This document shows positions 1 to 21,110 of a stretch of DNA of 24,000 nucleotides, piece after piece. Position numbers and translations under genes: made by a program. The DNA is from Vibrio stylophorae. Lineage in GTDB: Bacteria > Pseudomonadota > Gammaproteobacteria > Enterobacterales > Vibrionaceae. The stretch lies in the NCBI RefSeq assembly GCF_921293875.1, contig NZ_CAKLDI010000001.1:626475-650474 (forward strand), in the 5' to 3' direction. The stretch's first letter is position 1. Each line of letters starts with the position of its first letter. Below the pieces are notes generated by a model, which was not told the origin of the DNA, ran no database searches, and was given only the letters and a program-made list of their open reading frames with translations.

Positions 1-1
1 G

Positions 2-1741: not shown

Positions 1742-1774
1742 ATCCCCCTCAACGCAAATTTGTATGATTTGTTT

Positions 1775-6570: not shown

Positions 6571-6622
6571 GCGCTGAGAGCTAGACTAACAAAATGACAA
6601 ACCAGCAAGGGATGTGAGTTTT

Positions 6623-8179
6623 ATGTCTGTGACTTCAGCGCAATACATTATGGCGCTTGATCAAGGAACCACCAGTTCGCGAACGGTGATCCTTGATCAC
6701 AACGCCAACATTGTCAGCAGCGCGCAGCGCGAGTTTCGCCAAATCTATCCCAAAGCTGGCTGGGTCGAGCACGACCCCATGGAGATTTGGGCGACCCAAA
6801 GTGCCACCTTGGTTGAAGCGCTGGCCAAAGCGGGCATTCGCAGCGATGAGCTCGCCGCCATTGGCATCACCAATCAGCGGGAAACCACCATTGTTTGGCA
6901 CAAAGACACGGGTAAACCCATTTATAACGCCATTGTTTGGCAGTGCCGCCGCACCGCAGAGATGTGCGATACCTTGCGCAGCCAAGGCTTGGCTGAGATG
7001 GTGCGTGATAAAACTGGCTTAGTGTTGGATCCCTATTTTTCTGCCACCAAAATCAAATGGTTGCTAGATCATGTCCCCGGTGCGCGTGAAGCGGCTGATG
7101 CTGGCCTATTATGTTTTGGTACCGTGGATACTTGGCTGGTTTGGAAGATGACCCAAGGCCGAGTCCATGTCACGGACTATACCAATGCCTCGCGAACCAT
7201 GTTGTTCAATATTCACCAGCGCTGCTGGGATTCATCGCTTCTTGACGCATTTGATATTCCTGCCAGCATGATGCCTGAAGTGAAATCCTCATCGACGCGC
7301 TATGGCAAAGCTAATTTGGGCGGCAAAGGCGGTGTTCGCGTGCCCATTGCGGGTATTGCGGGCGATCAGCAAGCGGCGCTCTTTGGCCAAATGTGTGTAT
7401 CGCCGGGACAGGCGAAAAATACCTATGGTACGGGCTGCTTTTTGTTGATGAATACCGGTCAAGTGCCGGTACGCTCTCAGCATAACTTACTGACCACTCT
7501 TGCTTGCGATGCTAAGGGGGAGCCTGCTTATGCCCTGGAAGGTGCGGTATTTATGGCCGGCGCAGCTATTCAATGGTTGCGCGATGAAATGAAAATATTG
7601 GTGGATGCCAAAGATTCCGCCGACTGCGCCAAGCAAGTGGCCTCTGCCAATGGTGTGTATGTGGTGCCTGCCTTTACGGGCCTTGGCGCACCCTATTGGG
7701 ACCCTTATGCGCGAGGCACCATTGTGGGCCTGACGCGCGGCGTCAATCGAAACCATATTATTCGCGCAACGCTGGAGAGTATTGCCTATCAAACGCGCGA
7801 TGTGCTCGATGCCATGCAGGCCGATGCGGGGATTGAATTGGCGCATTTGCGCGTCGATGGCGGCGCGGTGGCCAATGATTTTTTGATGCAATTTCAAGCC
7901 GATCTATTAAATAGCACGGTGCAGCGGCCACAAGAAAGCGAAGTCACCGCACTTGGCGCGGCTTATTTGGCTGGGTTAGCCGTTGGCTTTTGGCAAGACT
8001 TGGATGAACTGGCCAATCAAGCCGTGTTAGAGCGCACTTTTACCCCTTCAGCCAATGCTGCCAAGCGCCAGCGGCGCTATCAAGGATGGCTGCGCGCCAT
8101 TGCCTGCGTGCAAGCATGGTCCGCGCTTCATGATGAGGCTGATGAGGATGCGATGGAGAGTATGACAGATAATATGTGA
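6623..8179 (+). CDS. glpK: Glycerol kinase
   Basis: FGGY-family hallmarks are present: [56 protein letters not shown] 6623 is preceded by aaggga, whereas the tracked ORF starts at GTG 6614. It ends in an acidic tail ([16 protein letters not shown]). Confidence 0.93.
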
Positions 8180-8282: not shown

Positions 8283-8750
8283 TTAAGGCATGGTGGCTAA
8301 AAAGCGAGTAAGGACATCCACAATCAATTGATGATCCGCTTGCTGTGGTAAACCTGAAACCGTAATACTTCCTACCACGCCAACATGACGAATGGTTAGG
8401 GGATAACTGCCACCATAGGGGGCGTAATCTCTCGCATCGACCAATGCAGCTTCTGCCATAGTTTTACCCTTGGCTTCATAGTAGCGACCCATATACCAGC
8501 TGCTGTGTTGCCAGCGCTGTACGACATTGCGTTTGCGCCGAATCCATTCGGCATTGTCTTGGGTGGTCGTTGGCATCGCATAATAAAACAGTGTTTGGCC
8601 GTTGAAGGTGATATCGATAGCGACATTGACACCGCGGTTCTCCGCTTCCTGCTTAATCGCTTCACCTAATTGCCAAGCGTAGGCATGGTCAAAGCGTTCA
8701 AAACTTAAGGCTTGCTCTTGTTCTTGAAGCGCTATAAGTAGTGGCGTCAT
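8283..8750 (-). CDS. UPF0303 / heme-degrading-domain (GlcG, DUF336-like) protein
   Basis: The 155-aa protein carries the family-like features I recall: ...AIDITFNGQTLFYYAMPTT...NAEWIRRKRNVV...YAPYGGSYPL...GSITVSGLPQQADHQL. A GAGGA Shine-Dalgarno lies 7 nt upstream of ATG 8750. It is 24 nt downstream of the oxidoreductase stop, so probably co-transcribed. Confidence 0.7.
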   Translation of the reverse strand: MTPLLIALQEQEQALSFERFDHAYAWQLGEAIKQEAENRGVNVAIDITFNGQTLFYYAMPTTTQDNAEWIRRKRNVVQRWQHSSWYMGRYYEAKGKTMAEAALVDARDYAPYGGSYPLTIRHVGVVGSITVSGLPQQADHQLIVDVLTRFLATMP

Positions 8751-8774
8751 GGTTGATTCCTCTGCGTTGTCACA

Positions 8775-9860
8775 TTAAGCGGGTAAAAAGGGTATCGTGC
8801 GTTTTTCTGCGGCGCTTTGATAGGCGGCTTCAATCACCCGCACCACATTGAGTGCTTCATCGGGCAGTACAGGAAGGGGGTGATTGTGATGAATCGCGGT
8901 GGCTAGCTGAGTGAAAAATTGTTCATACCCCCCTTGTTCAGTGGGGATGGTTCGGCGCTCTCCTTCGGCAGTGGTGAGTACGCCAAAATTAGCCGGATCA
9001 TCCAACCCCCAACCTGGGTGCTCTGGCCCTTGCTTCTCACGGAGTTGCGCTTCTTGGCTGTCCATACCGTATTTGATAAAGCTGGCTTGGTCGCCAAAAA
9101 CTTGAAAACGTGGCCCTTCGGTAGTGCTTAAACAATTGCCATGCAAAATTACATCGCAATCGGGGTAGTGCAGCTGCACATGGAAATGATCCACTGCTTG
9201 TGCACCGGGACGCTGGTTGCGTAACGTCGCGTTGATCAAGATCGGTAGGCCAAAGAGGGCTAAGGCTTGGTCAATTAAATGGGCACCCAAATCATATAAA
9301 ATACCGGCACCTGGTATATTTTGTTCACGCCAGCGCACCTTTACCTCTGGGCGATAGCGGTTGTAGCTGGAATAGAAGGTATGTACTTGGCCAAAGGTTT
9401 GTTCATTCATGAGGCGCTTGATGGTGAGAAAGTCGCCATCGAAACGACGGCTATGATAGACCGTTAATTTTCGATGGTGTGCTTTTGCAAGCGCAATTAA
9501 TGCTTTGCCATCTTCACTGTGATTGACGAATGGCTTTTCGATGACAACATGTTTGCCAGCATCCAGGGCTTGCTTGGCCATGGGGTAGTGCAAATTGTTG
9601 GGGGTGGCAATAATGACTAGTTCAATACTGTCATCGGTGAGTAAGTCGTTGAGGTTCGGGTATACCGTGACCTGTGGTAATTGTTGGTGTACTTTTTCCG
9701 CATCACTGGAGACCACTGCGACTAAATCTAGGGCTGTGACATAGTCAATGATCGGCGCTTGAAAACATTGCCCAGAAATACCAAAGCCAACTAATGCGGT
9801 ACGAATGGGGCGCGTTGATTGCTCTGAGGCTGCAGTTGACGGTGCGATTGCAGTGGACAT
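8775..9860 (-). CDS. Gfo/Idh/MocA family NAD(P)-dependent oxidoreductase
   Basis: It has an N-terminal Rossmann segment (IRTALVGFGISGQCF...), then ...VIIATPNNLHYPMAKQALDAGKHVVIEKP with the EKP motif typical of the family, and a C-terminal alpha/beta domain. ATG 9860 has GGAG 7 nt upstream. The tracked start at 9887 falls inside the ptsA terminator hairpin. Confidence 0.85.
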   Translation of the reverse strand: MSTAIAPSTAASEQSTRPIRTALVGFGISGQCFQAPIIDYVTALDLVAVVSSDAEKVHQQLPQVTVYPNLNDLLTDDSIELVIIATPNNLHYPMAKQALDAGKHVVIEKPFVNHSEDGKALIALAKAHHRKLTVYHSRRFDGDFLTIKRLMNEQTFGQVHTFYSSYNRYRPEVKVRWREQNIPGAGILYDLGAHLIDQALALFGLPILINATLRNQRPGAQAVDHFHVQLHYPDCDVILHGNCLSTTEGPRFQVFGDQASFIKYGMDSQEAQLREKQGPEHPGWGLDDPANFGVLTTAEGERRTIPTEQGGYEQFFTQLATAIHHNHPLPVLPDEALNVVRVIEAAYQSAAEKRTIPFLPA

Positions 9861-9879
9861 AAAGAGGCTCCATAAAATA

Positions 9880-9899
9880 GAGGCCACCAGTGTGGCCTC
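9880..9899 (-). terminator. Hairpin (terminator or attenuator) directly after ptsA
   Basis: gaggccac / gtggcctc forms an 8-bp stem with a 4-nt loop. On the minus strand it begins 6 nt after the ptsA stop and is followed by tattttat. The next gene's ATG (9860) lies only 19 nt beyond it, so read-through is probably needed. Confidence 0.55.
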
Positions 9900-9905
9900 A
9901 TTGTG

Positions 9906-12407
9906 TTAGATGATCTCAAGCTCTGCCTTTAGTATGGCTTCAATTTGGTGTGCTGATTCAGCATTCATCAAATGATCGCGAAATTCTGCGTGCATGATCT
10001 TACGTGCAAGGCGAGAAAATATCTTCATATGCTGGTCACCTGCGGCATGTTTGTTGAGGGTGAGCATGATCACAAATCTAGCTTCTTCATCGCCCCATTG
10101 AATCGGTTTAGCAAGACGGCAGACACTAATGGCTGATTGCTCAATATGTTCACTTTTGGTGTGTGGAATGGCAAAACCAAAGCCAAGACCGGTGGAGAAC
10201 ACGTCCTCACGAGCCCATAAATCATCGGCCAGTTTATTGGGATAGCGACAACGACCCGTTAAGTACAAGTTATCAGCTAGGGTTTTAATGACTTCCTCTT
10301 TGCTGCGCAAATCGCGATCTAAGCTAATGCAGTCAGCTGCAACCAGTGGCGCATCGGATTGGGTCATTCGGAACTGGGCCAGCAAATGTTCTACTTCAAG
10401 TGCGGTACGGCATTGCATCGCTTTGTTGAGCAGTTGGCGACATTCACGACTATCCAAACGGGCAATACGCTCTTTGGTTGCTGGAATGCTTGGCGCGCTC
10501 ATACTGATCTCATCCAAACCTAGACCAAGCAGTAGCGGTAATACTGAACCCTTGGCACCCAATTCACCACATAAACCAATCCATTTGCCATGGCGATGCA
10601 CTTCATTGACGACATGGTCCAAGGTGCGCAGAAAAGCAGGGTTCAAGCTGTTGTAGTTTTTGAGGACTTTGGCATTGTCACGATCCACCGCCATCAAGTA
10701 TTGGGTGAGGTCATTGGAGCCAATAGAGAAAAAGTCCACTTCTTCACAACATTGATCAATGATAAAGGCCACGGATGGTACTTCTAGCATGATCCCAAGC
10801 GGAATTTTTTCATCAAATGGAATATGTTCGCTGCGTAGCTCTTGACGAATTTCAGCCAATACATCCTTGACCCATAAAATCTCTTCCATAGAGGAGATCA
10901 TCGGAATCATGATCTTTAAGCGACCGTGGGCAGACGCACGAAGAATGGCTCGCAGTTGTGTTTTCACCATGGGTAAAAACTCTTGGTAGATGCGAATGGC
11001 GCGATAACCTAGGAATGGATTATTTTCTGCTGGAATATTGAGGTAATCCACTGGTTTGTCGCCACCAATATCGATGGTACGAATAATAATGGATTTGCCG
11101 TTTGCCGCTTCGATTGCTTGGCAGAAAATATTGTAGAGCTCATCCTCTTCTGGTGCATTGCTGCGATCCATATAGAGCATTTCGGTGCGAAATAGGCCAA
11201 TGGCCTCGGCGCCGTTGGTAAAAGCTGAGTCCGCTTCAACTGAGTGTGCAATGTTAGCTGCCACTTCTAGTTTTTTCCCATCTTGACTACAACCAGGCTC
11301 AAATCGATAAGCTTCTTGGCGTTTAGCAACTTGTTCGGCGACAAAACTTTCTTGTTGATAGTAACGCGAAAGCGGTTCGCTTATTTCGGTGGCGACAAAG
11401 CCAAGGGAACCGTCAATCAGAACCTCTTGATTAAGATAGGCTTGTAAGCTGTTGCCATCAATGCCCACCAACGTTGGAATAGCAAAGGAGCGCGCTAAGA
11501 TGACGGTGTGTGAGGTGCTACCGCCATGAGTCAGCAGCAATCCCTTGAGTTTGGATTTATCTAATTCAAGAAATTGGCTCGGGGTGAGGTCATCCGCCAT
11601 ACAGATGGAGGGGCCTGTCAGCTCGAGTTGGCTGGCAAAGCGCTGTTCGCCATAAATGGCTTGCAGGAGTTGGAAGCAGACATCGCGAATATCTAATTCA
11701 CGTTCACGTAGGTAAGTACTGGATGAATTTTTCATCATCTCGCCATAGTGTTTGGCGGTGGCGATAACCGCATCAGCGCAGCTTTTCCCGATGCTCAATT
11801 TACTGGCTAAGGTGCTGTTAAATTCACGGTCGGTAGCAATCGAAAGGTGGGCATTGAGCACCTCAAATTCGGTGTGCGTAGCTGCTTTGAGCTGAATATT
11901 AATGCTGGTCTTTAACGTCTCAAGTCCCTGCTTGAGTCGATCCTGTTCTTCATCCTGTGTGGTCGCAGCAATGCTTTCAATATTGTCAAAATTAATGGCA
12001 CCAATGTGCAACAGTTGGCCTTGACCAAACCCAGCAGAGACGGCACGGCCACGAATGAGTTTTGGATTTAAGTTAGCGAGATTACGTGGTAGGGCAAGAT
12101 GTTCATCCTCTTGTTCCGTGGTTTCAAGGGGGGCGTCACATGCAGGTAGATCTTTTTCAATAAATTCGCGAAGTGCAGCAAAGGCGGTTTCTTCATCATG
12201 ACCGTCAATGGTTAATTGACACGGGTCATCAAGTAGGGTGTCGGTACCAATTAAAGAGAGCACGCTTTTAGCATTGGCGCTGAGTTTGGTTCGGCCATTG
12301 GTCCAGATGATTTCAGAATCAAAACGGTTACACACGGCTTCAATATGGCTGGCTGGGCGAGCGTGGATGCCATTGGGTAGTTCACAACGAAAGGATAAAG
12401 TTTTCAT
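9906..12407 (-). CDS. ptsA: Multiphosphoryl transfer protein: fused HPr - Enzyme I - EIIA(fructose/mannitol type)
   Basis: The N-terminal HPr-like domain carries NGIHARPASHI. The EI core carries GGSTSHTVILARSFAIPTLVG (phospho-His), NPFLGYRAIR and FFSIGSNDLTQYLMAVDRDN. The C-terminal EIIA type-2 domain carries GFGFAIPHTKSEHI. The domain order and ~830-aa size match my recollection of E. coli PtsA (FrwA). AAGGA lies 9 nt upstream of the ATG. Confidence 0.92.
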   Translation of the reverse strand: MKTLSFRCELPNGIHARPASHIEAVCNRFDSEIIWTNGRTKLSANAKSVLSLIGTDTLLDDPCQLTIDGHDEETAFAALREFIEKDLPACDAPLETTEQEDEHLALPRNLANLNPKLIRGRAVSAGFGQGQLLHIGAINFDNIESIAATTQDEEQDRLKQGLETLKTSINIQLKAATHTEFEVLNAHLSIATDREFNSTLASKLSIGKSCADAVIATAKHYGEMMKNSSSTYLRERELDIRDVCFQLLQAIYGEQRFASQLELTGPSICMADDLTPSQFLELDKSKLKGLLLTHGGSTSHTVILARSFAIPTLVGIDGNSLQAYLNQEVLIDGSLGFVATEISEPLSRYYQQESFVAEQVAKRQEAYRFEPGCSQDGKKLEVAANIAHSVEADSAFTNGAEAIGLFRTEMLYMDRSNAPEEDELYNIFCQAIEAANGKSIIIRTIDIGGDKPVDYLNIPAENNPFLGYRAIRIYQEFLPMVKTQLRAILRASAHGRLKIMIPMISSMEEILWVKDVLAEIRQELRSEHIPFDEKIPLGIMLEVPSVAFIIDQCCEEVDFFSIGSNDLTQYLMAVDRDNAKVLKNYNSLNPAFLRTLDHVVNEVHRHGKWIGLCGELGAKGSVLPLLLGLGLDEISMSAPSIPATKERIARLDSRECRQLLNKAMQCRTALEVEHLLAQFRMTQSDAPLVAADCISLDRDLRSKEEVIKTLADNLYLTGRCRYPNKLADDLWAREDVFSTGLGFGFAIPHTKSEHIEQSAISVCRLAKPIQWGDEEARFVIMLTLNKHAAGDQHMKIFSRLARKIMHAEFRDHLMNAESAHQIEAILKAELEII

Positions 12408-12432
12408 CTCAGCATGTCCTTGAATTTAATTT

Positions 12433-12458
12433 TTTGAGGGCTGAATCATTACCTCAAA
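12433..12458. promoter_or_regulatory. Inverted repeat in the ptsA 5' region (candidate operator or 5'-UTR hairpin)
   Basis: tttgagg (12433..12439) and cctcaaa (12452..12458) are exact reverse complements separated by 12 nt. The spacer region gctgaatcattacc (12440..12453) is a near match to the Cra/FruR consensus as I remember it (RSTGAAWCSNTHHW). Confidence 0.3.
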
Positions 12459-12533
12459 CAATATCAAATTCGTCTGTCCATGCTATGGGATAAAAAATCG
12501 AAACACTGGATATTTGTTATATTTTGGGTTTTG

Positions 12534-12549
12534 TGTGAGTGCGCTCAAA
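12534..12549. promoter_or_regulatory. CRP-like site in the divergent ptsA / frwC control region
   Basis: TGTGA-gtgcgc-TCAAA compared with the consensus TGTGA-N6-TCACA gives 9 of 10 half-site positions. Confidence 0.35.
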
Positions 12550-12771
12550 AATACTGCTTTAAATGTGACTCTGAGCATGTTTTTCATTGTTGGTTGATAT
12601 GGGGTTGTTTTGTAATACATTGATTTAATTTGTTTTATGTCGATTTATTCACGTTTATTTATCTATTGGTTAAAAAGTGTGGTGTGGATCTGCTTTTTAG
12701 TTGGTTCATACAAAAATCCAGTTAAAAGTAGTTTTATCCTCTATTTGATTAGCATATTTACTCACTATATT

Positions 12772-12817
12772 AGCTGCATCAGAACGCAGTTAGAAACTGC
12801 GCACTGGCTGTTTTTTT
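12772..12817 (+). terminator. Leader hairpin plus T7 run about 55 nt upstream of frwC (candidate attenuator)
   Basis: The core stem is cgcagtt (12785..12791) / aactgcg (12795..12801). It can be extended by cag/ctg and agc/gct pairs, and is followed immediately by ttttttt (12811..12817). Confidence 0.35.
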
Positions 12818-12872
12818 ACTTTATCAACCAAGTTCAAAAATAACGCTTACTTACCCTGAAGGAGAAGTCACC

Positions 12873-13943
12873 ATGAATGACTTGATCTCAATACTCAAAA
12901 ATACAAGACAACACTTGATGACTGGTGTGTCACATATGATTCCGTTCGTCGTTGCGGGGGGTATTTTGCTTGCCACATCGGTGATGCTTTCCGGTAAGGG
13001 CGCTGTCCCTGCAGAGGGCTCATGGCTCCATGATTTGTTCTTTATTGGGGTTGCAGGCTTTACCTTGATGGTACCTATTCTTGCTGCTTACATCGGTTAT
13101 TCCATTGCCGACCGTTCGGCACTTGCTCCTGCGGCCATTGGCGCGTTCATTGGCGCCAATATGTATAACACAGGTTTCTTTGGTGCCATTTTTGCTGGTT
13201 TGTTGGGCGGTATTGTCGTTTTTTACCTAAAGAAAATTAAAGTTCCATCCTTTGCCCGCTCTGTGATGCCTATTTTTGTGATTCCAATTATCGGTACTTT
13301 TATCACTGCAGGTGCCATGGTTTGGTTGATTGGTGAGCCGATTGGTGCCGCAACGGACGCTCTAACTGGCTTTTTGAGAGGCATGCAAGACTCAAGCATT
13401 GTGGTACTTGCAACTGTGATGGGTTTGATGATCGCCTTTGATATGGGTGGTCCGGTCAATAAAGTGGCCTATGCATTTGTGATTATGTGTGTAGGTGAAG
13501 GGATTTATAACGTTGCAGGTATCTCTGCGGTAGCTGTGGCTGTGCCTTCTGTCGGTATGGGCTTGGCGACCTTCTTGAATAAAAAACTGTATGACGTGAG
13601 TGAGCAAGAAGCGGGCCGCGCCTCAATTTTGATGGGCACCATGGGAATCACAGAAGGTGCAATTCCATTTGCCGCTGCCGATCCACTTCGCGTGATCCCA
13701 TCAATCATGATTGGTACAGCGGTGGGCTCTGTGACTGCGGCACTGCTCGGCGTGAAATGTTATGCCGCTTGGGGTGGTCTGATTGTCCTCCCTGTCGTTG
13801 AAGGGCGCTTTGGTTTCTTAATTGCATTGGCGGTTGGTTCAATCGTGACTGCGCTGCTAGTGAACCTATTGAAGTCGCGCCGTACTGTCATTGACACCAA
13901 TGCTGACTCAGATGATTTAGACATGGATATCTCCATTGGCTGA
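12873..13943 (+). CDS. frwC: PTS fructose-family EIIC permease
   Basis: The 356-aa polytopic membrane protein begins ...HLMTGVSHMIPFVVAGGILLA, typical of fructose-type EIIC. A strong AAGGAG Shine-Dalgarno precedes the start. Its position matches E. coli frwC. Confidence 0.9.
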   Translation: MNDLISILKNTRQHLMTGVSHMIPFVVAGGILLATSVMLSGKGAVPAEGSWLHDLFFIGVAGFTLMVPILAAYIGYSIADRSALAPAAIGAFIGANMYNTGFFGAIFAGLLGGIVVFYLKKIKVPSFARSVMPIFVIPIIGTFITAGAMVWLIGEPIGAATDALTGFLRGMQDSSIVVLATVMGLMIAFDMGGPVNKVAYAFVIMCVGEGIYNVAGISAVAVAVPSVGMGLATFLNKKLYDVSEQEAGRASILMGTMGITEGAIPFAAADPLRVIPSIMIGTAVGSVTAALLGVKCYAAWGGLIVLPVVEGRFGFLIALAVGSIVTALLVNLLKSRRTVIDTNADSDDLDMDISIG

Positions 13944-14005
13944 TGGATAGCCACACCGTTACTTACGAATACATTGAATTTGAATTGCAAATAGAGGAAT
14001 TCGCT

Positions 14006-14326
14006 ATGACTAGCATTATCGCAGTAACCGCATGTCCATCAGGCGTAGCGCACACATATATGGCTGCCGAGGCCATTGAATCAGCAGCAAAAGCAAAAGG
14101 CTGGAGTTGCATGGTTGAAACCCAAGGGTCAATCGGTATTGAAAATGAGTTAAGTGCCGAGGTGATTGCCAGCGCAGATGTGGTGATTCTGACTAAAGAC
14201 ATCGACATCAAAAACACCGAGCGTTTTGAAGGTAAAACTATTATCCGCATCGGCATCAGTGACGCGGTAAAACGCGCGGCGTTGGTGATGGATAAGATTG
14301 AGGCACACCTCGCTTCAGTCGCCTAA
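14006..14326 (+). CDS. frwB: PTS fructose-family EIIB
   Basis: MTSIIAVTACPSGVAHTYMAAEAIE carries the phospho-Cys motif of EIIB(Fru). GAGGA lies upstream of ATG 14006. The tracked ORF start at 13943 adds an unlikely 21-aa extension. The product is 106 aa. Confidence 0.88.
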   Translation: MTSIIAVTACPSGVAHTYMAAEAIESAAKAKGWSCMVETQGSIGIENELSAEVIASADVVILTKDIDIKNTERFEGKTIIRIGISDAVKRAALVMDKIEAHLASVA

Positions 14327-14335
14327 TGAGTATGG

Positions 14336-14370
14336 CCAGCATCTGTGTTGTCGCCACTCACAGATGCTGG
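14336..14370 (+). other. 12-bp-stem hairpin between frwB and the GRE gene
   Basis: ccagcatctgtg (14336..14347) is the exact reverse complement of cacagatgctgg (14359..14370), with an 11-nt loop. No clear U-run follows (ttgatggg). Confidence 0.5.
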
Positions 14371-14547
14371 TTGATGGGTTCCTGGCACCCAGATGAATGA
14401 CTAGCCAGGATCACTTGCCCTGCATTGTGACCTGATGTGATTGCCACGCAGCGAGACACAATATCAGTGCAGCGCAAGTCATTCTTAAATCAGTGCTTAT
14501 CGCACATTAACAATAATAAATCAGCCTGAATCAAGATGGAGTCAATC

Positions 14548-16848
14548 ATGAGTACCCCTCGCATCGAACGACTAAAAACGGCACTGTTTGCTGATGGCCG
14601 TGAAATTTCTCTAGAGCGCGCGCTGCTCTATACCGAAAGCCATCAACAAACTGAAGGTGAACATACCCTGATTCGTCGCGCTAAAGCGACGGCGCATGTG
14701 ATGGACAGGGTTGCCATTGCTATTCGTGATGACGAGTTGATCGCAGGGAATCGCACGGTGAAACCGCGAGCGGGGATCATCTCACCAGAGATGGATCCTT
14801 ACTGGATTGCAAAAGAGCTGGATATTTTCGCAACTCGACCACAAGACCGTTTCACCATCAGCGACGAGGACAAGGCTGTTTATCGTGAGCAGCTGTTGCC
14901 GTATTGGACGGCGCGCTCGATGAAAGACTTTATCAATGGTCAAATGCCTGAAAACGTGAAAGAAGCGGCAGGGCAAAAAATATTTTCGGTTAATCAAACC
15001 GATAAAGGCCAAGGGCATATTATTATCGATTTTGAACGATTGTTGGGGCGGGGTTTGGGCGCGTTGCGTCAAGAGATGCAGCGTTTGAGTTGCGAGCAAC
15101 CTGACAATGAATTTTTCCAAGCGGTGCTGATTTTACTGGATGCCTCAGTGCGCCATATTCAGCGTTATGAAGCGCTGGCCCGCGACATGGCGGCCGCCTG
15201 CGCAGATAGTACCCGCGCCGCTGAGTTGACGCGTATTGCGGATATTTCGTCGCATATTGCTGAGCACAAACCGCAAGACTTCTACCAAGCCTGCCAGCTG
15301 TTTTGGTACATGAACATCATTTTGCAATATGAGTCTAACGCTAGCTCTTTGTCTTTGGGGCGTTTTGACCAATATATGATGCCTTTTTACCAAGCCTCAT
15401 TGGCGCAAGGGGAAAGCCCAGCTGCGCTCAAAGAGTTACTAGAAAGCTTATGGGTGAAAACCAATGACATCGTGCTGCTGCGCTCTTCTTCTAGCGCCAA
15501 GTTCTTTGCTGGTTTCCCAACGGGTTACACCATTTTGCTTGGCGGCTTGACGGACAATGGCCGTAGTGCGGTGAATCCATTGTCGACCTTATGTTTAGAT
15601 GCCTATCAAAGTATTCAGCTGCCACAACCCAATCTTGGCGTGCGGGTGAATGAGTTCATTGATCGCGAGTTCTTAATGAAAACTGCCGAAACCATTCGTT
15701 TGGGTACGGGGATCCCGCAAATTTTCAATGACGAAGTGGTGGTTCCCGCCTTTTTAAATCGCGGCGTGAGTCTTGAAGATGCGCGTGATTACTCTGTGGT
15801 GGGGTGTGTTGAACTATCGATTCCGGGTAAAACCTACGGTTTGCATGATATTGCAATGTTTAACTTGTTGAAGGTGATGGAGTTGGTGTTGCTGCGTAAT
15901 AAGAACAACCCCGATGTAACCTTTGAAAGTTTGCTCCAAGAGATCCGCAGCGATATTTGTCACTACGTTAAGCTGATGGTGGAAGGCTCTAATATTTGTG
16001 ATGTTGGCCATCGTGATTGGGCTCCAGTGCCGCTGCTGTCGTCGTTGATTAGCGATTGCGTGAAAAATGGCAAAGATATTACCGATGGTGGCGCCCGTTA
16101 TAACTTTTCGGGCGTACAAGGGATTGGCATTGCCAATCTGTCTGACTCACTTCACGCTCTGAAACGCTTTGTCTTTGAAGAAAAACGGATGACTTTTGCT
16201 GAGTTGATTGCGGTTCTGGAAAGCAATTTTAGTGGTGAAGACCACGATAAAGTGCGTGCACGCTTAATCAATCGTTATGAAAAATATGGTAACGATATTG
16301 ATGAAGTGGATGTGCTTGGCAGCGATCTACTGCGTCTCTTTTGTAAAGAGGTAGAAATCTACCAAAATCCGCGTGGCGGCGTATTTACTCCAGGATCTTA
16401 TACCGTGTCTGCACACGTACCTCTGGGCGCTGTGGTTGGTGCTACACCAGATGGGCGTCATGCCGGGGAGCAGCTTGCCGATGGCGGTTTATCGCCGATG
16501 GTTGGAAAGGATCAACAAGGGCCGACAGCAGTACTGAAATCGGTGAGTAAGCTGGATAACTACCTACTTTCTAATGGTAGTTTGTTGAACGTAAAATTTA
16601 CCCCATCGACCCTTGAGGGGCCGCAGGGACTAACCAAGCTGGGAGACTTTCTTCGCGCCTTTATGAAGCTCAAATTGCAGCATGTACAGTTTAATGTGCT
16701 CAATGCTGAAACTCTGAAAAAAGCGCAGGAAAAACCAGAGGACTACGCCGGCCTTGTCGTCCGTGTGGCGGGTTACAGCGCCTTCTTTGTTGAGCTTTCT
16801 AAAGAGATTCAGGACGACATTATTCACCGCACGGCGCATCAGCTGTAA
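14548..16848 (+). CDS. pflD: Glycyl radical enzyme, PflD-type (eliminase/lyase class, not a true pyruvate formate-lyase)
   Basis: The C-terminal glycyl-radical motif is VVRVAGYSAFFVEL (Gly codon 16771..16773). The thiyl loop is VVGCVELSIPG, a single Cys with Glu two residues later, as in the dehydratase/lyase GREs, rather than the CC pair of PFL. The size, the N-terminus RIERLKTALF and the activase immediately downstream match E. coli PflD as I recall it. GGAG lies 6 nt before ATG 14548. Confidence 0.92.
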   Translation: MSTPRIERLKTALFADGREISLERALLYTESHQQTEGEHTLIRRAKATAHVMDRVAIAIRDDELIAGNRTVKPRAGIISPEMDPYWIAKELDIFATRPQDRFTISDEDKAVYREQLLPYWTARSMKDFINGQMPENVKEAAGQKIFSVNQTDKGQGHIIIDFERLLGRGLGALRQEMQRLSCEQPDNEFFQAVLILLDASVRHIQRYEALARDMAAACADSTRAAELTRIADISSHIAEHKPQDFYQACQLFWYMNIILQYESNASSLSLGRFDQYMMPFYQASLAQGESPAALKELLESLWVKTNDIVLLRSSSSAKFFAGFPTGYTILLGGLTDNGRSAVNPLSTLCLDAYQSIQLPQPNLGVRVNEFIDREFLMKTAETIRLGTGIPQIFNDEVVVPAFLNRGVSLEDARDYSVVGCVELSIPGKTYGLHDIAMFNLLKVMELVLLRNKNNPDVTFESLLQEIRSDICHYVKLMVEGSNICDVGHRDWAPVPLLSSLISDCVKNGKDITDGGARYNFSGVQGIGIANLSDSLHALKRFVFEEKRMTFAELIAVLESNFSGEDHDKVRARLINRYEKYGNDIDEVDVLGSDLLRLFCKEVEIYQNPRGGVFTPGSYTVSAHVPLGAVVGATPDGRHAGEQLADGGLSPMVGKDQQGPTAVLKSVSKLDNYLLSNGSLLNVKFTPSTLEGPQGLTKLGDFLRAFMKLKLQHVQFNVLNAETLKKAQEKPEDYAGLVVRVAGYSAFFVELSKEIQDDIIHRTAHQL

Positions 16849-16856
16849 GGAATAGC

Positions 16857-17714
16857 ATGATGTGTGATGGTCAAACTGAGGCATTTGGGCGCATTTTTAA
16901 CATTCAGCGCTACTCACTGAATGATGGCGAGGGAATTCGCACTGTGGTGTTTTTCAAGGGCTGCCCATTGCGCTGCCCTTGGTGCGCTAATCCTGAATCC
17001 CGCTCTTTGCATCAGGTACATGTGCGTCGTTTGTCGAAATGTTTGCACTGTGATGTTTGCCAAGAGGATGTTGTGGAGTGCCCGAGTGGCGCTTATGAGC
17101 AAGTTGGTCAAGATATGACGCTGGCTGAAGTGCTTACTGAAATTGCCAAAGATGACTTGTTTTACCAAACCTCTGGCGGCGGGGTGACGTTATCAGGCGG
17201 TGAAGTACTTAGCCAAGCGCCTTTTGCCATTGTCCTGCTCGAAGCATTAAAAGCACGTGGTTATCGCACCGCGATTGAAACGTCGGGCCATGGTAACGCT
17301 CAGCAGCTGCTACAAATTGGTGCACTGTGCGATGAAGTGCTGTTTGATTTCAAAATAATGGATGCGGCGCGCGCCAAAACTGTGATTGGCTCGAATGTCG
17401 AACGGATACTCGAGAACTTTCAAAGCTTGATGGCGCAAAGTAAAACCACAGGCACCAAGGTGATCCCCCGATTACCGCTGATTCCGGGGTATACCTTAGA
17501 TATCGTCAATGTCGATAAGGTGCTGAATTTTCTTTGTCCCTTTGCACTTGACCAGATTCATTTACTGCCATTTCACCAATTTGGTGCCAGCAAATATGAG
17601 CTGTTGGGAATGGCATACCAACTTAAAGATGTCGATGTGCCAACCCATGCCGAGGTCAATGCGATTCGCGCACATGTTGAAGCACAGGGCTACACAGTCA
17701 CAATTGGAGGCTAA
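16857..17714 (+). CDS. pflC: Glycyl-radical enzyme activating enzyme (radical SAM)
   Basis: It has the CPLRCPWC (CX3CX2C) radical-SAM cluster motif and the GGVTLSGGE SAM-binding motif. A 4-Cys insert (CLHCDVCQEDVVEC) follows the first cluster. It starts 8 nt after the GRE stop. Confidence 0.92.
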   Translation: MMCDGQTEAFGRIFNIQRYSLNDGEGIRTVVFFKGCPLRCPWCANPESRSLHQVHVRRLSKCLHCDVCQEDVVECPSGAYEQVGQDMTLAEVLTEIAKDDLFYQTSGGGVTLSGGEVLSQAPFAIVLLEALKARGYRTAIETSGHGNAQQLLQIGALCDEVLFDFKIMDAARAKTVIGSNVERILENFQSLMAQSKTTGTKVIPRLPLIPGYTLDIVNVDKVLNFLCPFALDQIHLLPFHQFGASKYELLGMAYQLKDVDVPTHAEVNAIRAHVEAQGYTVTIGG

Positions 17715-17715
17715 G

Positions 17716-18576
17716 GTGAAAAAACGCATTTTAATAACAGGGGCCAATGGTTTTTTTGGGACGCGCTTTATCAATCGTTATCGCCATGAGTTTGAGATCA
17801 CCGCGACTGATGTGCCTGATTTAGATATTACAGATGTCGCCATGGTCAACGAGACCTTTGCCAAGGTGCGCCCCGACTATGTGATTCACGCAGCGGCCAT
17901 TGCCGTCACCGATTTTTGTAACGCCAACCCAGATGTGGCCTATCAAGTGAATGTACAAGGGGCGATCAACGTTGCCACGGCTTGCAAAGCGGTGGGTGCC
18001 AAACTGGTCTTTATTTCAACCGAGCAGGTATTTAACGGTAATCCTGAAGCTGGTCCTTACGATGAAACTATGATCCCTGTGCCAGATACGGTTTACGGCC
18101 AAAACAAGCTGGAAGCGGAAGCCAAACTGTCTGAGATTATCGATGAGCTTTGGGTGCTGCGTTTTACTTGGCTGTTTGGCTTGCCAGAGCGTAACACCAG
18201 CATTAATCCCAATGTGTTGTGGAATGCGTTGCAAGCCTTGGTCAAAGGTAAGCGCATGGCTGAACGGCGCAATGAGTTTCGCGGTTTGACCTATGTGCAT
18301 GAACTTATCGACCAGTTCCCGAAAATTTTTGATATCCCTTATGGTCTTTACCATACCGGTGCACATAACGACGCTAGCCGTTACGACATTGCCGCGCACA
18401 TTATTGCTGAAATGGGATTATCGCTAGAGCAGCATGAATTGCTAGAAGCGGTAGATGCACCAAAAACGCGTGATGTGCGGCTTAACACTCAAAAATTAGC
18501 CGATGTTGGTGTGGTCTTTAGTGACAGTCGCACTGCCATTAGCCAATGTTTAAACGAATTTAGTTTTCGCCTATAG
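17716..18576 (+). CDS. RmlD-like extended SDR (NAD(P)-dependent sugar reductase/epimerase family)
   Basis: GTG 17716 lies 1 nt after the pflC stop, with GGAGG 5 nt upstream. The translation gives KKRILITGANGFFG (GxxGxxG), LDITD..RPDYVIHAAA, STEQVF and YGQNK (YxxxK), a layout typical of the dTDP-4-dehydrorhamnose reductase (RmlD) family. The tracked ORF start (17542) overlaps pflC out of frame and is not credible. Confidence 0.85.
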   Translation: MKKRILITGANGFFGTRFINRYRHEFEITATDVPDLDITDVAMVNETFAKVRPDYVIHAAAIAVTDFCNANPDVAYQVNVQGAINVATACKAVGAKLVFISTEQVFNGNPEAGPYDETMIPVPDTVYGQNKLEAEAKLSEIIDELWVLRFTWLFGLPERNTSINPNVLWNALQALVKGKRMAERRNEFRGLTYVHELIDQFPKIFDIPYGLYHTGAHNDASRYDIAAHIIAEMGLSLEQHELLEAVDAPKTRDVRLNTQKLADVGVVFSDSRTAISQCLNEFSFRL

Positions 18577-18633
18577 GGCAGCAAATGAAAACGCCGCGCA
18601 GTAGCGCTGCGGGTCTGAAGTAGGAGTGACCTC

Positions 18634-19311
18634 ATGATTTATATGTTAGATACCGCGAATTTGGATGCAATTCAAAAGGCTGTTGACCTTTATCCAATTG
18701 AAGGTGTAACCACCAACCCCACAATTATTGCGCGTGAAAATCGTCCATTTAAGGAGGTGATCACCAGTATTCGTGCCATTATCGGTCCTGATCGCATGCT
18801 CCATGCGCAGGTGCTCGGTAAAACTGCGGAAGTGATGCTCGAAGAAGCGCGAGCGATGCGCCAAATTGATGCCGATATCATAATCAAAGTGCCAGTGACT
18901 CCACAGGGCATTAAAGCAATGAAACTGATTCACCAAGAGGGGATTCGTATCACTGCCACCGCGATTTTAACGCCGCAGCAAGCGCTTATGGCGGCTATGG
19001 CTGGCGCTGAATTTTTAGCGCCTTATGTCAATCGATTGGATAACATCTGTGGTGATGGCACTCAGGTGGTAGCTGAAATTGCCCATCTGATTGATATTTA
19101 TGGGTTAAATGCTAAGGTGCTAGCGGCATCGTTTAAAAATGTACAGCAAGTGCATGAAGTGGCAAAGGCGGGCGCACAATCCGTGACTATTGGCCCAGAT
19201 GTGTTTGATTTGCTTCTGGTACATCCGCTTACTGATTCTGGCGTAGCGGGCTTTGTTAGCGACTGGGATAGTGTATATGGCGCCGATAAAACGGTACTTG
19301 ATGTGATTTAG
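18634..19311 (+). CDS. fsa: Fructose-6-phosphate aldolase type class I aldolase (transaldolase subfamily 5)
   Basis: It carries MIYMLDTANLD..GVTTNPTII, IIKVPVT (Schiff-base Lys) and LAPYVNRLD. The Tyr in APYVNR is the Fsa-type residue; transaldolases have Phe there. The protein is about 220 aa. AGGAG lies 8 nt upstream. Confidence 0.88.
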   Translation: MIYMLDTANLDAIQKAVDLYPIEGVTTNPTIIARENRPFKEVITSIRAIIGPDRMLHAQVLGKTAEVMLEEARAMRQIDADIIIKVPVTPQGIKAMKLIHQEGIRITATAILTPQQALMAAMAGAEFLAPYVNRLDNICGDGTQVVAEIAHLIDIYGLNAKVLAASFKNVQQVHEVAKAGAQSVTIGPDVFDLLLVHPLTDSGVAGFVSDWDSVYGADKTVLDVI

Positions 19312-19373
19312 GTCTTTTTTACGTGCTAGGCATGTAAAACTCACCAGTCATTTATGATGTCGGTCAATATTTG

Positions 19374-19413
19374 AGTACTCAGTGCGTATATACTCACTGA
19401 GTACTTTGTATTT
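19374..19413 (+). terminator. Strong hairpin plus T-rich tail between fsa and the second EIIB gene
   Basis: agtactcagtg (19374..19384) is the exact reverse complement of cactgagtact (19395..19405). The loop contains the palindrome gtatatac. It is followed by ttgtattt. Confidence 0.45.
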
Positions 19414-19427
19414 AGCGACGGACGAAT

Positions 19428-19763
19428 ATGAAAATTGTTGGAGTCACGGCTTGTATAAGTGGTGTTGCTCATACCTATATGGCTGCTGAGCTGCTAGAAA
19501 AAACAGCACTGAAAATGGGTTGTAGTGCGATCATTGAAACGCAGGGCGCACTGGGTAGTGAAAATACCCTGACAGACAGCCAAATTAGTGAAGCGGATGT
19601 GGCGTTAATTGTGGCTGATATTAATATTGAGGGCGAAGCACGTTTTGCGCAATCACGCGTGTTGATGTTGTCTATTTCTCAGTTTTTAAAAGATCCGCAA
19701 GCAGCGATTGTTGCGGCTGAAAAATTAAAAAAAGCCCCACCGCAAACACGAATGATCCTTTAG
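19428..19763 (+). CDS. frwD: Second PTS fructose-family EIIB
   Basis: MKIVGVTACISGVAHTYMAAELLE retains the EIIB phospho-Cys motif. It is 111 aa and is the last gene of the cluster, as frwD is in E. coli. Confidence 0.85.
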   Translation: MKIVGVTACISGVAHTYMAAELLEKTALKMGCSAIIETQGALGSENTLTDSQISEADVALIVADINIEGEARFAQSRVLMLSISQFLKDPQAAIVAAEKLKKAPPQTRMIL

Positions 19764-19789
19764 ATGCCAGAGAACTGTGAGATGTATTT

Positions 19790-19815
19790 AAAAACCAGCT
19801 GTGATGCTGGTTTTT
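19790..19815. terminator. Bidirectional rho-independent terminator between convergent frwD and the AraC-type gene
   Basis: aaaaaccagc (19790..19799) is the exact reverse complement of gctggttttt (19806..19815), with loop tgtgat. It has an A-tract on the 5' side and a T-tract on the 3' side (continuing tgttttt). Confidence 0.75.
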
Positions 19816-19898: not shown

Positions 19899-20771
19899 CT
19901 ATACCTCTGCTTCTAGGTTACTGCGATATTGCACACGGTATTGCGAGGGAGTGCGAGCGGTTTGTTGACGAAAAACTCGGCAGAAATAGTTACTGTCACT
20001 AAATCCGCAACGGTGGGCCACTTCTTTTACTTTCATGTCATATTCTTTGAGTAAAAATTTGGCGCGCTCAAGGCGCACATGGTTTAAGTACTCATTAAAT
20101 TTATGCTTGCTTTCTTTTTGAAATAGCTGTGACAGGTAGTTGGGTGACACATAAAAGTGCTCGGCAACGGACTCACGTGAGAGTGGCTCATGATAATGGT
20201 GTTCAAGGTAATCGCGAACGGTATCAAATAGCGTTTTACTTTTAGAGTAGGTGGTCGCTGGGTGGTGGATGAGGTACAAAATATGGCTGCATAGTGTGCG
20301 AATGAGTAACCGCTGTGTTTGTTGATCACCCATTTGCCATGTCATCTCTTCGAGGGCTTGAAGAACAAAGGTTCCGGTTCTTGGGCCACGTCGCGCCACA
20401 CTTTCCTTAATGGAAGCATCAAATTGCTCTCCATCCCAGCTGAGCAAGCTCATGCCGAAATTTTGCTTACCTACTAGAACGGATAAGGTGACGACGGGTT
20501 GTGTCCAATTGGGTTTGTTCCAGCTTTCCGCTGGGACATACAGCACATCACCAGCCTGCATGATATGGCGTTCTTCCATCCCCATTTTGCTGCCCATTTC
20601 CATTTCAAGCTCGCCAATAAGTACCATTTCGACACGCGTGAAATGTACTTGATAAGCCATGGGTGGTGGTGTTGGCAAGTGGCCGGCATGCAGCACTTGA
20701 CCAATTGTGCTTTGGTGTGAAGCGTAATGCTCAAGGGCATCAATGAGGTAGGTGCGATCCACAATAGGCAT
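19899..20771 (-). CDS. AraC/XylS family transcriptional regulator (cupin sensor domain plus C-terminal HTH)
   Basis: The C-terminus (VAEHFYVSPNYLSQLFQKE...VKEVAHRCGFSDSNYFCRVFRQQTARTPSQYR) is the canonical AraC dual HTH. The N-terminal part (AGDVLYVPAESW) is cupin-like. The tracked start (20813) is a TTG. The first ATG is 20771, but its Shine-Dalgarno is poor, so the start is uncertain. Its position matches E. coli yijO. Confidence 0.85.
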   Translation of the reverse strand: MPIVDRTYLIDALEHYASHQSTIGQVLHAGHLPTPPPMAYQVHFTRVEMVLIGELEMEMGSKMGMEERHIMQAGDVLYVPAESWNKPNWTQPVVTLSVLVGKQNFGMSLLSWDGEQFDASIKESVARRGPRTGTFVLQALEEMTWQMGDQQTQRLLIRTLCSHILYLIHHPATTYSKSKTLFDTVRDYLEHHYHEPLSRESVAEHFYVSPNYLSQLFQKESKHKFNEYLNHVRLERAKFLLKEYDMKVKEVAHRCGFSDSNYFCRVFRQQTARTPSQYRVQYRSNLEAEV

Positions 20772-21110
20772 CCTTGGAAAGTGAATAAATCTACTACAAA
20801 TACATGACACCAATCGGTCATCATGGAGGGATTTTATCTCTAATTGCTTCCGTTAAAATCACAGTGTTGTGGATTTATCATGCGCATCACATTTTTGCGT
20901 TGATCGCACAAATTTCCAGTCAATCGTAGAAAAATCAAATATTGAAATTTTCTCAGCCACGTAGCCTGAAGGTGTGGTGCGTCAGAAATAATAAGGCAAA
21001 ACGCCATGGCGTTGCACTGCACTTTAGGCTGTTGCTGCTGGTGTGAATGTGCCTTTCGGACTTGGCATCAAGCAGTCAAAACGTATTGATATTGTTGCTG
21101 AGATCAAACC

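Follow-up and report, generated by a model that had tools for sequence, protein, structure and literature searches.

The locus described here lies in a 24,000-nucleotide stretch of DNA from Vibrio stylophorae (the window; contig NZ_CAKLDI010000001.1, positions 626,475 to 650,474). It encodes a phosphotransferase system (PTS), a glycyl radical enzyme (GRE) with its activating enzyme, an FSA-type aldolase and three accessory proteins, namely a short-chain dehydrogenase/reductase (SDR), a UPF0303 protein and a Gfo/Idh/MocA oxidoreductase (Gfo). Orthology identifies it as the predicted V. stylophorae version of the PflD branch of 'anhydroglycolysis'. The arrangement of the genes is far beyond chance, and the identical order was found in more than 20 other genomes. 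To our knowledge, the first description of the PflD/YbiW pathway dates from 2024 and concerns solely the gene set of the Escherichia coli type. The window would hold a second, taxonomically wider and probably older version of the PflD pathway, with three conserved components beyond the published scheme. The core system is already known, and the SDR-UPF0303(-Gfo) module together with the divergence of the transporter appears to be a widespread and undescribed variant of it, though Ma et al. (JACS 2024) may show these neighbours.

The two E. coli enzymes concerned catalyze C-O cleavage, PflD of 1,5-anhydromannitol-6-phosphate (AM6P) and YbiW of 1,5-anhydroglucitol-6-phosphate (AG6P) (PMC13450708, section 5.7). 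Both give 1-deoxyfructose-6-phosphate, which aldolases convert to glyceraldehyde-3-phosphate and hydroxyacetone (PMC13450708), and both routes begin with PTS phosphorylation (PMC12441222). A previous interpretation of the window made without database searches (the sequence-only reading) had outlined this ring-opening biochemistry, and the two reviews agree with it. The annotated E. coli chromosome likewise bears out the map that it had given, with gldA-fsaB-ptsA divergent from frwC-frwB-pflD-pflC-frwD and yijO convergent. Work by Ma et al. in JACS in 2024 is said to have found that GldA reduces the hydroxyacetone.

In V. stylophorae, a PTS composed of a PtsA-like HPr-EI-EIIA fusion, a FrwC-like EIIC and two EIIBs would take up a 1,5-anhydro-hexose or -hexitol and phosphorylate it at position 6. 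PflD, activated by PflC, would open the ring of AM6P to give 1-deoxyfructose-6-phosphate, and the FSA-type aldolase would cleave this product to glyceraldehyde-3-phosphate and hydroxyacetone. Both divergent operons would be controlled by a YijO-like AraC regulator, acting on two inverted operators, and by CRP. The SDR, its UPF0303 partner and the IolW-like Gfo could constitute an entry-side C2 redox module that feeds AM6P to PflD, a role to which we give somewhat less than an even chance. As a whole, the explanation formed by the core PflD pathway, the ancestral layout of the cluster and the entry-side module seems to us to be evenly balanced between right and wrong.

With E. coli PflD the GRE shares 77% identity, and it scored 1502 against the PflD equivalog model NF007437 (NCBIfam, cut-off 1109). 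Comparison with solved structures gave 1345 bits for E. coli PflD (8YJO), 1048 for 8ID0, 644 for glycerol dehydratase (1R8W) and 474 for YbiW. The broad PFL2/glycerol-dehydratase subfamily model TIGR01774 was also passed (1135, cut-off 678). The pyruvate formate-lyase (PFL) model TIGR01255 reached 117, far under its cut-off of 994, the CutC model 505, under its cut-off of 1050, and each of the remaining GRE equivalog models (HypD and others) stayed under its own cut-off on this protein. Identity to two non-PflD GREs was 35-37% (about 37% for the YbiW-like one of the two). The same pair served to define PflD-specific columns, which are invariant in 65 reference PflDs, including 8ID0, and hold a different residue common to the two other enzymes; the window GRE carries the PflD residue at 56 of the 56. 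In addition, PF01228 matched at 1e-30, and the C-terminal glycyl radical motif RVxG[FWY] is present as RVAGY, with G742 in the numbering of the 766-aa product. The cysteine loop GCVE contributes C420 and E422 in the same numbering. Its surroundings, VVGCVELSIPG, align with VGCVETSIPG of 8ID0, the Streptococcus dysgalactiae enzyme whose structure has AM6P bound and in which the CxE motif corresponds to Cys431/Glu433 (for the roles of these residues see PMC13450708).

The S. dysgalactiae enzyme is about 61% identical alike to the window GRE, to the E. coli enzyme and to the Clostridium enzymes, and 286 columns are invariant across 91 PflDs that include it. Pairwise identities and a midpoint-rooted tree placed the window GRE between E. 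coli PflD and 8ID0. Only 11 columns of the GRE differ in a type-specific manner between loci of the Vibrio type and of the E. coli type, all of them conservatively, and at five of the 11 the SDR-bearing type matches the residue of 8ID0. The comparison of the GRE with PflD, YbiW and other GREs, for which the sequence-only reading had called, thus sided with PflD and not with the formate-lyases. Given the high identity, the score above the equivalog cut-off and the complete set of PflD columns, the core chemistry can be considered known, and the window GRE is a PflD orthologue with a predicted function as AM6P C-O lyase. Orthology also supports the central proposal of that reading, that is, PTS uptake, ring opening by the GRE and aldol cleavage in a gene composition other than that of E. 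coli.

The remaining core proteins follow the same pattern. The activase scored 419 with NF007483 (cut-off 326), is 57% identical to E. coli PflC and contains the motif CPLRCPWC (CxxxCxxC) at residues 36-43 as well as a second cysteine cluster. The PtsA-like fusion is 65% identical to E. coli PtsA, and the phosphorylation-site motifs GIHARPA, GGSTSH and AIPH are found in its translation. EIIC (65% identical to FrwC) reached 575 with the FrwC model NF007787 (cut-off 426). The FrwB-like EIIB (78% identical to FrwB, motif VTACPSGVAHT) scored 174.7 with NF007783 (cut-off 135), while the second EIIB, which is 54% identical to FrwD and contains VTACISGVAHT, had NF007747 as its best NCBIfam model with 125.6, below the cut-off of 153.

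The aldolase scored 224.6 with NF009299 (cut-off 214) and 231.8 with TIGR00875, just below 245.95. It is 38% identical to FsaB and 54-61% identical to the aldolases of the Firmicute clusters. The Schiff-base lysine is present in the motif IIKVPV, and the FSA-specific Gln (HAQV) and Tyr (APYVNR) take the place of the transaldolase Glu and Phe. The three motifs align with those of FsaA and FsaB (Gln59/Tyr131 in E. coli FsaA numbering), the B. subtilis transaldolase having SAEV and SPFLGR. By these features the protein is classed as an FSA-type aldolase of another lineage than E. coli FsaA/FsaB, and not as an FsaB orthologue. The suggestion that an aldolase had been recruited into the GRE operon is probably wrong, given this different lineage and the paraphyly of the SDR-bearing type in the tree presented below.

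The organization of the locus is provided in Table 1. All genes that the sequence-only reading had named were found in the open reading frame map and domain scans where it had placed them, and its spacings (8 nt between GRE and activase, 1 nt between activase and SDR, 57 nt between SDR and aldolase) were exact, as were the length of the GRE and that of the AT-rich divergent region, whose guanine plus cytosine (GC) content of 33% compares with 47.5% for the whole window. In exact-sequence look-ups the gene boundaries agreed with the deposited annotation; for Gfo, the start at 9860 and the 361-aa product matched the annotated protein exactly. The start codon of the SDR gene is GTG, one base past the activase stop, and the AraC gene probably starts in truth at about 20774. 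It must be noted that the deposited names (public records CAH0532752-CAH0532761) are misleading. The GRE appears as 'Choline trimethylamine-lyase', the activase as 'Benzylsuccinate synthase activating enzyme', the SDR as 'GDP-L-fucose synthase' or 'dTDP-4-dehydrorhamnose reductase', Gfo as 'IolW' and EIIC as 'mannose-specific EIIBCA'; 'formate C-acetyltransferase' is also among the public names.

Table 1. Genes and other features of the predicted PflD locus of V. stylophorae (positions in the window).
Feature	Position	Strand	Support
UPF0303/HbpS-like (DUF336-type) protein, 155 aa	8283..8750	-	PF03928, NF002696
Gfo/Idh/MocA oxidoreductase, YvaA(IolW)/YdgJ subfamily, 361 aa	8775..9860	-	Pfam, NF008607
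Hairpin with T-rich tail in the 45-nt ptsA-gfo gap	9880..9899	-	Consensus scan only
PtsA-like multiphosphoryl transfer protein, HPr-EI-EIIA(Fru), 833 aa	9906..12407	-	Five Pfam domains in order
Divergent regulatory region, 465 bp, 33% GC	12408..12872	.	Operator pattern and CRP-like site
PTS EIIC, FrwC orthologue, 356 aa	12873..13943	+	NF007787
PTS EIIB, FrwB orthologue, 106 aa	14006..14326	+	NF007783; RefSeq start confirmed
EIIB-GRE spacer, 221 nt, perfect hairpin at 14336-14370	14327..14547	+	Minimum free energy (MFE), Rfam
GRE, PflD orthologue, 766 aa	14548..16848	+	NF007437, PDB matches; exact product confirmed
GRE activating enzyme, PflC orthologue, radical SAM, 285 aa	16857..17714	+	NF007483
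RmlD-like extended SDR, 286 aa	17716..18576	+	PF04321
FSA-type aldolase, 225 aa	18634..19311	+	NF009299
Second PTS EIIB, FrwD-like, 111 aa	19428..19763	+	NF007747 best model
Intrinsic-terminator-like hairpin, 10-bp stem and T-run, closing the plus-strand operon	19790..19815	+	Consensus scan
AraC-family regulator, YijO orthologue, convergent	19899..20813	-	52% identity to E. coli YijO

As regards the accessory proteins, the SDR matched PF04321 over its full length (1e-46). It contains the Rossmann motif GANGFFG (GxxGxxG) and YGQNK, keeps the Ser/Thr-Tyr-Lys catalytic residues, and retains 50-85% identity inside PflD clusters of three phyla. Its score with the RmlD equivalog TIGR01214 was 147, below the cut-off of 224. 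At the position of STDYVF, which we take to be the sequence of S. Typhimurium RmlD, it has STEQVF, and there is a six-residue insertion, LPERNT. No rml genes were found in the window by the open reading frame map and domain scans. A function as RmlD was ruled out by the sub-cut-off score, the STEQVF sequence, the lack of rml context and the constant setting in PflD clusters. The substrate domain is complete and of RmlD size, with three invariant or nearly invariant Arg, and therefore an anionic substrate would suit it. We infer for this protein a role as C2 oxidoreductase or epimerase on anhydro-hexose 6-phosphates.

The UPF0303 gene, which the sequence-only reading had left unnamed, is the strictest partner of the SDR. 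Its product matched PF03928 (1e-30; 106.9, cut-off 25) and NF002696 (199.6, cut-off 146), and its closest solved structure is yeast YBR137W (4CLC). EfgA, a DUF336 relative, has been reported as a formaldehyde sensor (PMC8153426). One might speculate that the UPF0303 protein binds a small carbonyl compound, whether the module acts at the entry or at the exit of the pathway.

Gfo scored 352 with NF008607 (cut-off 330), and its closest PDB entry was B. subtilis YvaA (315 bits). By eye, a Ser occupies the site diagnostic of NADP(H)-dependent enzymes, following the rule for NADP-type ketone reductases of the family (PMC9603128), and Gfo is probably of the NADP(H) type. The fold family is that of 1,5-anhydro-D-fructose reductase (AFR, EC 1.1.1.292; Pfam), the Ensifer/Sinorhizobium enzyme for which no E. 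coli orthologue is known (PMC13534727). None of the 51 solved chains similar to Gfo (E <= 1e-8) was named as AFR, the best being YvaA- and YdgJ-like, and this ranking gives no support to Gfo as an AFR orthologue. By relationship, the families of the SDR (RmlD) and of Gfo (YvaA) can both be described as ring-ketone reductases. In the gap between ptsA and gfo, an 8-bp GC-rich hairpin is followed by TATTTTAT; it may represent a partial or attenuating terminator that lowers the expression of the gfo and UPF0303 genes with respect to ptsA.

To establish the distribution of these genes, one genome per species was scanned, which gave 80 loci whose PflD had an identity of 76% or more. Further loci were added through homologues of the SDR and of 8ID0, and all were scored by tblastn, giving a total of 95 PflD-family loci; a metagenome scan with the SDR gave four loci, too few for a census. 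In this neighbourhood census of pflD orthologues, which the sequence-only reading had proposed, the SDR was present in 28 of the 95 loci, and its UPF0303 partner accompanied it throughout the assessable ones: 25 of the 28 contained UPF0303, and the other three, whose contigs break off within 1.8 kb upstream of the GRE, could not be assessed. UPF0303 was found in 0 of the 67 loci without SDR. Since the pairing is kept across three gene orders and three phyla, there is strong neighbourhood evidence that both proteins work together, and with PflD.

Four layouts were distinguished, the last of them being the varied arrangements of Firmicutes. The Vibrio type, with the gene order of the window, was found in Vibrio, Photobacterium, Aeromonas jandaei and the alphaproteobacterium Pseudovibrio. 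The E. coli type (Enterobacterales, Necropsobacter and Gilliamella) has fsaB, and sometimes gldA, by ptsA and is without SDR, UPF0303 and Gfo. Kluyvera, Pseudocitrobacter and relatives have the GRE and activase alone, without adjacent PTS, aldolase or ptsA genes; the GRE of these eleven stripped-down loci is 76-77% identical to that of the window. Clostridium has UPF0303, then GRE-activase-SDR-aldolase, then gfo with PTS genes. In Bacillus sp. and Exiguobacterium, gfo is followed by UPF0303-DeoR and then by EIIC-SDR-EIIA-EIIB-GRE-activase-aldolase. The cluster of S. dysgalactiae reads PTS-GRE-activase-aldolase-Fe-ADH, the last gene encoding an iron-dependent alcohol dehydrogenase (Fe-ADH), that of Clostridium cel8 reads GRE-activase-aldolase-gfo and adjoins a YbiW-like GRE, and that of C. 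arbusti consists of just GRE-activase-aldolase. The claim that the composition is unlike that of E. coli therefore holds, and what does not hold is that it is special to the strain, since the layout is standard in Vibrionaceae and recurs in Firmicutes.

Gfo/Idh/MocA genes were found in 11 of the 20 Vibrio-type loci and in all five of the Firmicute loci with accessory genes. Identity between the Firmicute genes and that of Vibrio is only 23-28%, which rules out a single Gfo orthologue across phyla and indicates that the family was recruited at least twice, from different subfamilies. As for gldA, the sequence-only reading was correct that the window is without a GldA match, yet GldA-like genes adjoin six of the 28 SDR-bearing loci (in locus L018, between the UPF0303 and gfo genes), and GldA was not negatively associated with the SDR (Fisher p = 0.23). 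Because a GldA homologue lies beside these six loci, the SDR is not simply a substitute for GldA.

In a neighbour-joining tree, S. dysgalactiae was outermost, one clade joined the Vibrio type to the Enterobacterales and a second contained the SDR-bearing Clostridium. SDR-bearing loci are thus found both within and outside the clade to which the E. coli type belongs, and are paraphyletic. This tree is distance-based and midpoint-rooted, so that the direction of evolution read from it is a likelihood and not a proof. Taking together the tree, the five GRE columns shared with S. dysgalactiae and an aldolase closer to those of Firmicutes, GRE-activase-SDR-aldolase with UPF0303, and usually with Gfo, is a widespread form of the PflD cluster and probably the ancestral one. 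Given the paraphyly of the SDR-bearing type, the E. coli layout looks derived, the Enterobacterales having apparently lost the accessory genes and gained fsaB and gldA.

Other observations were made on individual loci. Two Pseudovibrio loci are complete and of identical order to the Vibrio type; their GRE is 81% identical to that of the window and their SDR 73% (L005) and 70% (L016), a pattern indicative of horizontal acquisition by a marine alphaproteobacterium from Vibrionaceae. A Firmicutes metagenome contig (L091, 1-4105) has an SDR-aldolase pair that is 60% and 56% identical to that of the window. Its neighbours are an activase that carries additional ferredoxin domains and a fragment of a much more divergent GRE, with about 29-32% identity to PflD. 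It is possible that the pair works with a further GRE class as well. In Exiguobacterium (L096, 12952-15343), a second HbpS-like gene comes after an IclR regulator and an MFS transporter, directly downstream of the PflD cluster.

The comparison of the Vibrio and E. coli types showed that EIIC is the sole component with strong type-specific divergence, while the GRE barely changes. Type-specific columns amount to 43 of the 356 in EIIC (12.1%) and to 0.7-3.8% in the PtsA fusion, both EIIBs, the GRE, the activase and the regulator. Identity of EIIC is 88% and 86% within the two types and 66% between them. This divergence is supportive of the earlier proposal of extra or different chemistry, or a different substrate, in the Vibrio-type locus.

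The region between the two operons contains two inverted copies of a 32-bp bipartite operator, at 12486-12517 (+) and 12710-12741 (-), one facing each operon. The pattern, TGGRAYAWWW-N10-CTGGAYWWWTGT, had 2 matches in the window where 0.05 were expected. Between the copies there is a CRP-like site, TGTGAGTGCGCTCAAA, at 12534-12549, and a second TGTGA half-site at 12564. Within a set of 21 proteobacterial loci of the Vibrio type, both operator copies were found in 16 and at least one in all 21, and the CRP-like site is kept in 15, its six-base spacer varying freely; the ptsA-frwC region of E. coli has the same operator motif adjoining a CRP site. The AraC regulator is identical to E. coli YijO at 52% of positions over 265 aa, and its gene stands at the same place in all proteobacterial Vibrio-type loci with enough flank. 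In attention to the direct-repeat form of the site and the conservation of the regulator, the putative operator is assigned to the YijO-like protein, and these data support a model in which this regulator and CRP would jointly control the two divergent operons. In the spacer between EIIB and the GRE, which is four times longer than in E. coli (221 vs 50 nt) and mildly structured (MFE z = -2.0), a hairpin was found at 14336-14370 (+), with a perfect stem of 12 bp around a loop of 11 nt and without a T-run. Its function might lie in processing or stability, or it might indicate where an internal promoter region is located. No Rfam RNA family matched anywhere in the window, including this spacer.

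With respect to the accessory proteins, the reading that we favour is that they act before the GRE. They would convert 1,5-anhydrofructose-6-phosphate and/or AG6P to AM6P, either by oxidation and re-reduction via a 2-keto sugar, as in the myo-to-scyllo-inositol conversion by IolG/IolW, or within the SDR alone. CDP-tyvelose 2-epimerase is a precedent for C2 epimerization by an SDR. In this way a single GRE would handle substrates that in E. coli call for PflD and YbiW together, and the transporter would import a different or wider set of anhydro-sugars. This entry-side role is favoured because of the divergence of EIIC, the distribution of GldA, the location of the SDR gene upstream of the GRE gene and among PTS genes in Bacillus and Exiguobacterium, and the absence of SDR and UPF0303 from E. 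coli and Clostridium cel8, the two organisms in which PflD was observed together with a YbiW-like GRE. No YbiW-like gene was found in the window or in any of the SDR-bearing locus flanks examined, and the co-orientation of gfo with PTS genes in Vibrio and Clostridium was also counted for this role, as were the complete substrate domain of the SDR with its three Arg and the relationship of both redox families to ring-ketone reductases. Several points weigh against it. It must be considered that the Vibrio-type loci are known from sequence alone, that the cofactor assignments were made by eye and that the action of UPF0303 is not accounted for. Gfo is missing in eight of the 20 Vibrio-type loci and follows the aldolase in Clostridium cel8, which has no SDR, and in the clusters of S. 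dysgalactiae and C. arbusti the SDR is missing and no YbiW lies nearby. The faster divergence of EIIC could have causes besides substrate range, and only 6 of its 43 type-specific positions follow the presence of the SDR into Firmicutes, a weak signal.

In Vibrio and Clostridium the SDR gene directly precedes that of the aldolase, as gldA precedes fsaB in E. coli, and this fits equally well an exit-side function, in which the reduction of hydroxyacetone to 1,2-propanediol by the SDR and/or Gfo, in place of the non-orthologous GldA, would maintain redox balance, with UPF0303 as a carbonyl-binding helper or sensor. Such a function, which we consider unlikely although far from negligible, agrees with the absence of gldA from the window and from 22 of the 28 SDR-bearing loci, with the position of the SDR gene immediately upstream of the aldolase in all loci of the Vibrio and Clostridium types, and with that of the cel8 Gfo gene, which occupies the place of Fe-ADH in S. 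dysgalactiae. Extended SDRs acting on small carbonyls exist. The formaldehyde sensing reported for EfgA (PMC8153426) would also be in line with it. It is less easily reconciled with the GldA homologues beside six SDR-bearing loci and the lack of negative association, with an SDR located away from the aldolase in Bacillus and Exiguobacterium, or with the RmlD-size substrate domain and three Arg of this enzyme. Moreover, two reductases and a strictly paired UPF0303 exceed the needs of one ketone reduction, and the divergence of EIIC is left unexplained. That the GRE of the Vibrio-type cluster acts on another anhydro- or deoxy-sugar phosphate than AM6P, its product being adjusted by the SDR (e.g., by epimerization of a 1-deoxy-ketohexose-6-phosphate) before the aldolase, would be compatible with the place of the SDR gene between those of the activase and the aldolase, with the different FSA lineage and with the diverged EIIC. 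Nevertheless, the 56 matched columns, the mere 11 conservative substitutions between types, five of them shared with AM6P-bound 8ID0, and an identity to E. coli PflD of 77%, when 8ID0 itself is only about 61% identical to both, make this improbable. The public names (choline lyase, formate C-acetyltransferase, GDP-fucose synthase, IolW) would imply that the SDR, UPF0303 and Gfo are unrelated neighbours, or that the GRE is a pyruvate/ketobutyrate formate-lyase or choline lyase. This is contradicted by the scores with TIGR01255 and CutC, by the pairing of SDR and UPF0303 in three gene orders across phyla, by gaps of just 1 and 8 nt and by the lack of rml, fucose or iol genes in the window, and we give it hardly any credence.

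Stated in its most specific form, the entry-side proposal is that SDR and UPF0303, aided by Gfo, make up an undescribed module of two or three proteins that epimerizes or reduces AG6P and 1,5-anhydrofructose-6-phosphate at C2 to AM6P, giving marine vibrios and several Firmicutes a 'single-GRE' anhydroglycolysis of common natural anhydro-sugars; in that form we find it rather doubtful. If true, 1,5-anhydrofructose from algal or host glucans would be an example of a substrate, so that the pathway could be linked to this sugar, for which we know of no bacterial anaerobic route, and a first biochemical role would be gained for the UPF0303 family, whose conservation extends from bacteria as far as yeast. 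Knowledge of what the accessory genes do would establish the range of anhydro-sugars open to fermentation by marine and gut bacteria. In addition, it would correct a systematic misannotation as choline lyase, benzylsuccinate synthase activase, GDP-fucose synthase and IolW.

The domain scans of the flanks revealed mtlD, mtlR, an RND efflux pair and glpK on one side and manA and a DeoR regulator on the other, and the PflD locus sits within a carbohydrate and polyol utilization neighbourhood (mtlD, mtlR, glpK, manA and DeoR). The left flank (1-8179) begins with mtlD, which is truncated at the edge of the window, and also comprises mtlR, the adaptor and permease genes of the RND efflux pair, with a GC content of 50-54% versus 44-48% in the surrounding DNA, and glpK. 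On the right, the AraC gene is closely followed by manA (21111-22391), which encodes a class I mannose-6-phosphate isomerase. In six other Vibrio-type loci (L002/L003, 13188-15463; L013, L014, L017 and L021) manA is also found beyond AraC, the copies being 42-47% identical mutually. The pattern scan of the window gave no operator copy upstream of manA, which by this test is therefore outside the regulon. In Vibrio sp. EJY3 and V. parahaemolyticus, a gene for a PhyH-family Fe/2-oxoglutarate dioxygenase lies between the AraC gene and manA, and the two genes suggest an oxygen-dependent route from AM6P to mannose-6-phosphate and fructose-6-phosphate. At the right end, 11 nt past the DeoR-family gene (22988-23740), an Fe-ADH-like N-terminus (23752-24000, +) runs off the window. 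It is YqhD/butanol-dehydrogenase-like by eye, not GldA-like, and is placed 4 kb from the locus, behind manA and the DeoR gene. Of the added redox genes in the sequence-only reading, the RmlD-like SDR and the Gfo/Idh/MocA gene were borne out; the nearby Fe-ADH exists, but outside the conserved set. Because it was present in no other locus examined, it was rejected as part of the system and is probably unrelated to the PflD locus.

With regard to known systems, the mode of action proposed for the accessory proteins has its nearest analogue in IolG/IolW of B. subtilis, two dehydrogenases that interconvert ring epimers via a ring ketone (PMC9768902). The likeness consists in the window Gfo being nearest to B. 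subtilis YvaA among solved structures and in its public name, IolW. However, iol genes are lacking in the window, the substrate would be an anhydro-hexitol in phosphorylated form, and an SDR takes the place of a second Gfo-family enzyme as the partner, so that this is an analogy only. With RmlD (dTDP-4-dehydrorhamnose reductase), the window SDR has in common the fold, the length, GxxGxxG and the Ser/Thr-Tyr-Lys residues. The E. coli YbiW system shares the type of reaction, the product 1-deoxyfructose-6-phosphate and the FSA aldolase as the next step, but its GRE is only about 37% identical to that of the window. The S. dysgalactiae PflD cluster has the same core (EIIA-EIIB-EIIC-GRE-activase-FSA aldolase) in a single direction, with a GRE that is 61% identical; it differs in a GldA-like Fe-ADH after the aldolase and is without SDR, UPF0303, Gfo and the PtsA fusion. 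The system most similar to the window is E. coli ptsA/frw-pflDC, the PflD branch of 'anhydroglycolysis', which has the same divergent operons, the same convergent AraC gene and the same architecture of bipartite operator and CRP site. E. coli has fsaB and gldA by ptsA, where the window has gfo and the UPF0303 gene downstream of ptsA. The V. stylophorae locus is further set apart by a non-orthologous FSA-type aldolase (38%) within the GRE operon, by the addition of SDR, UPF0303 and Gfo, and by an EIIC with 43 fixed differences from that of the E. coli type.

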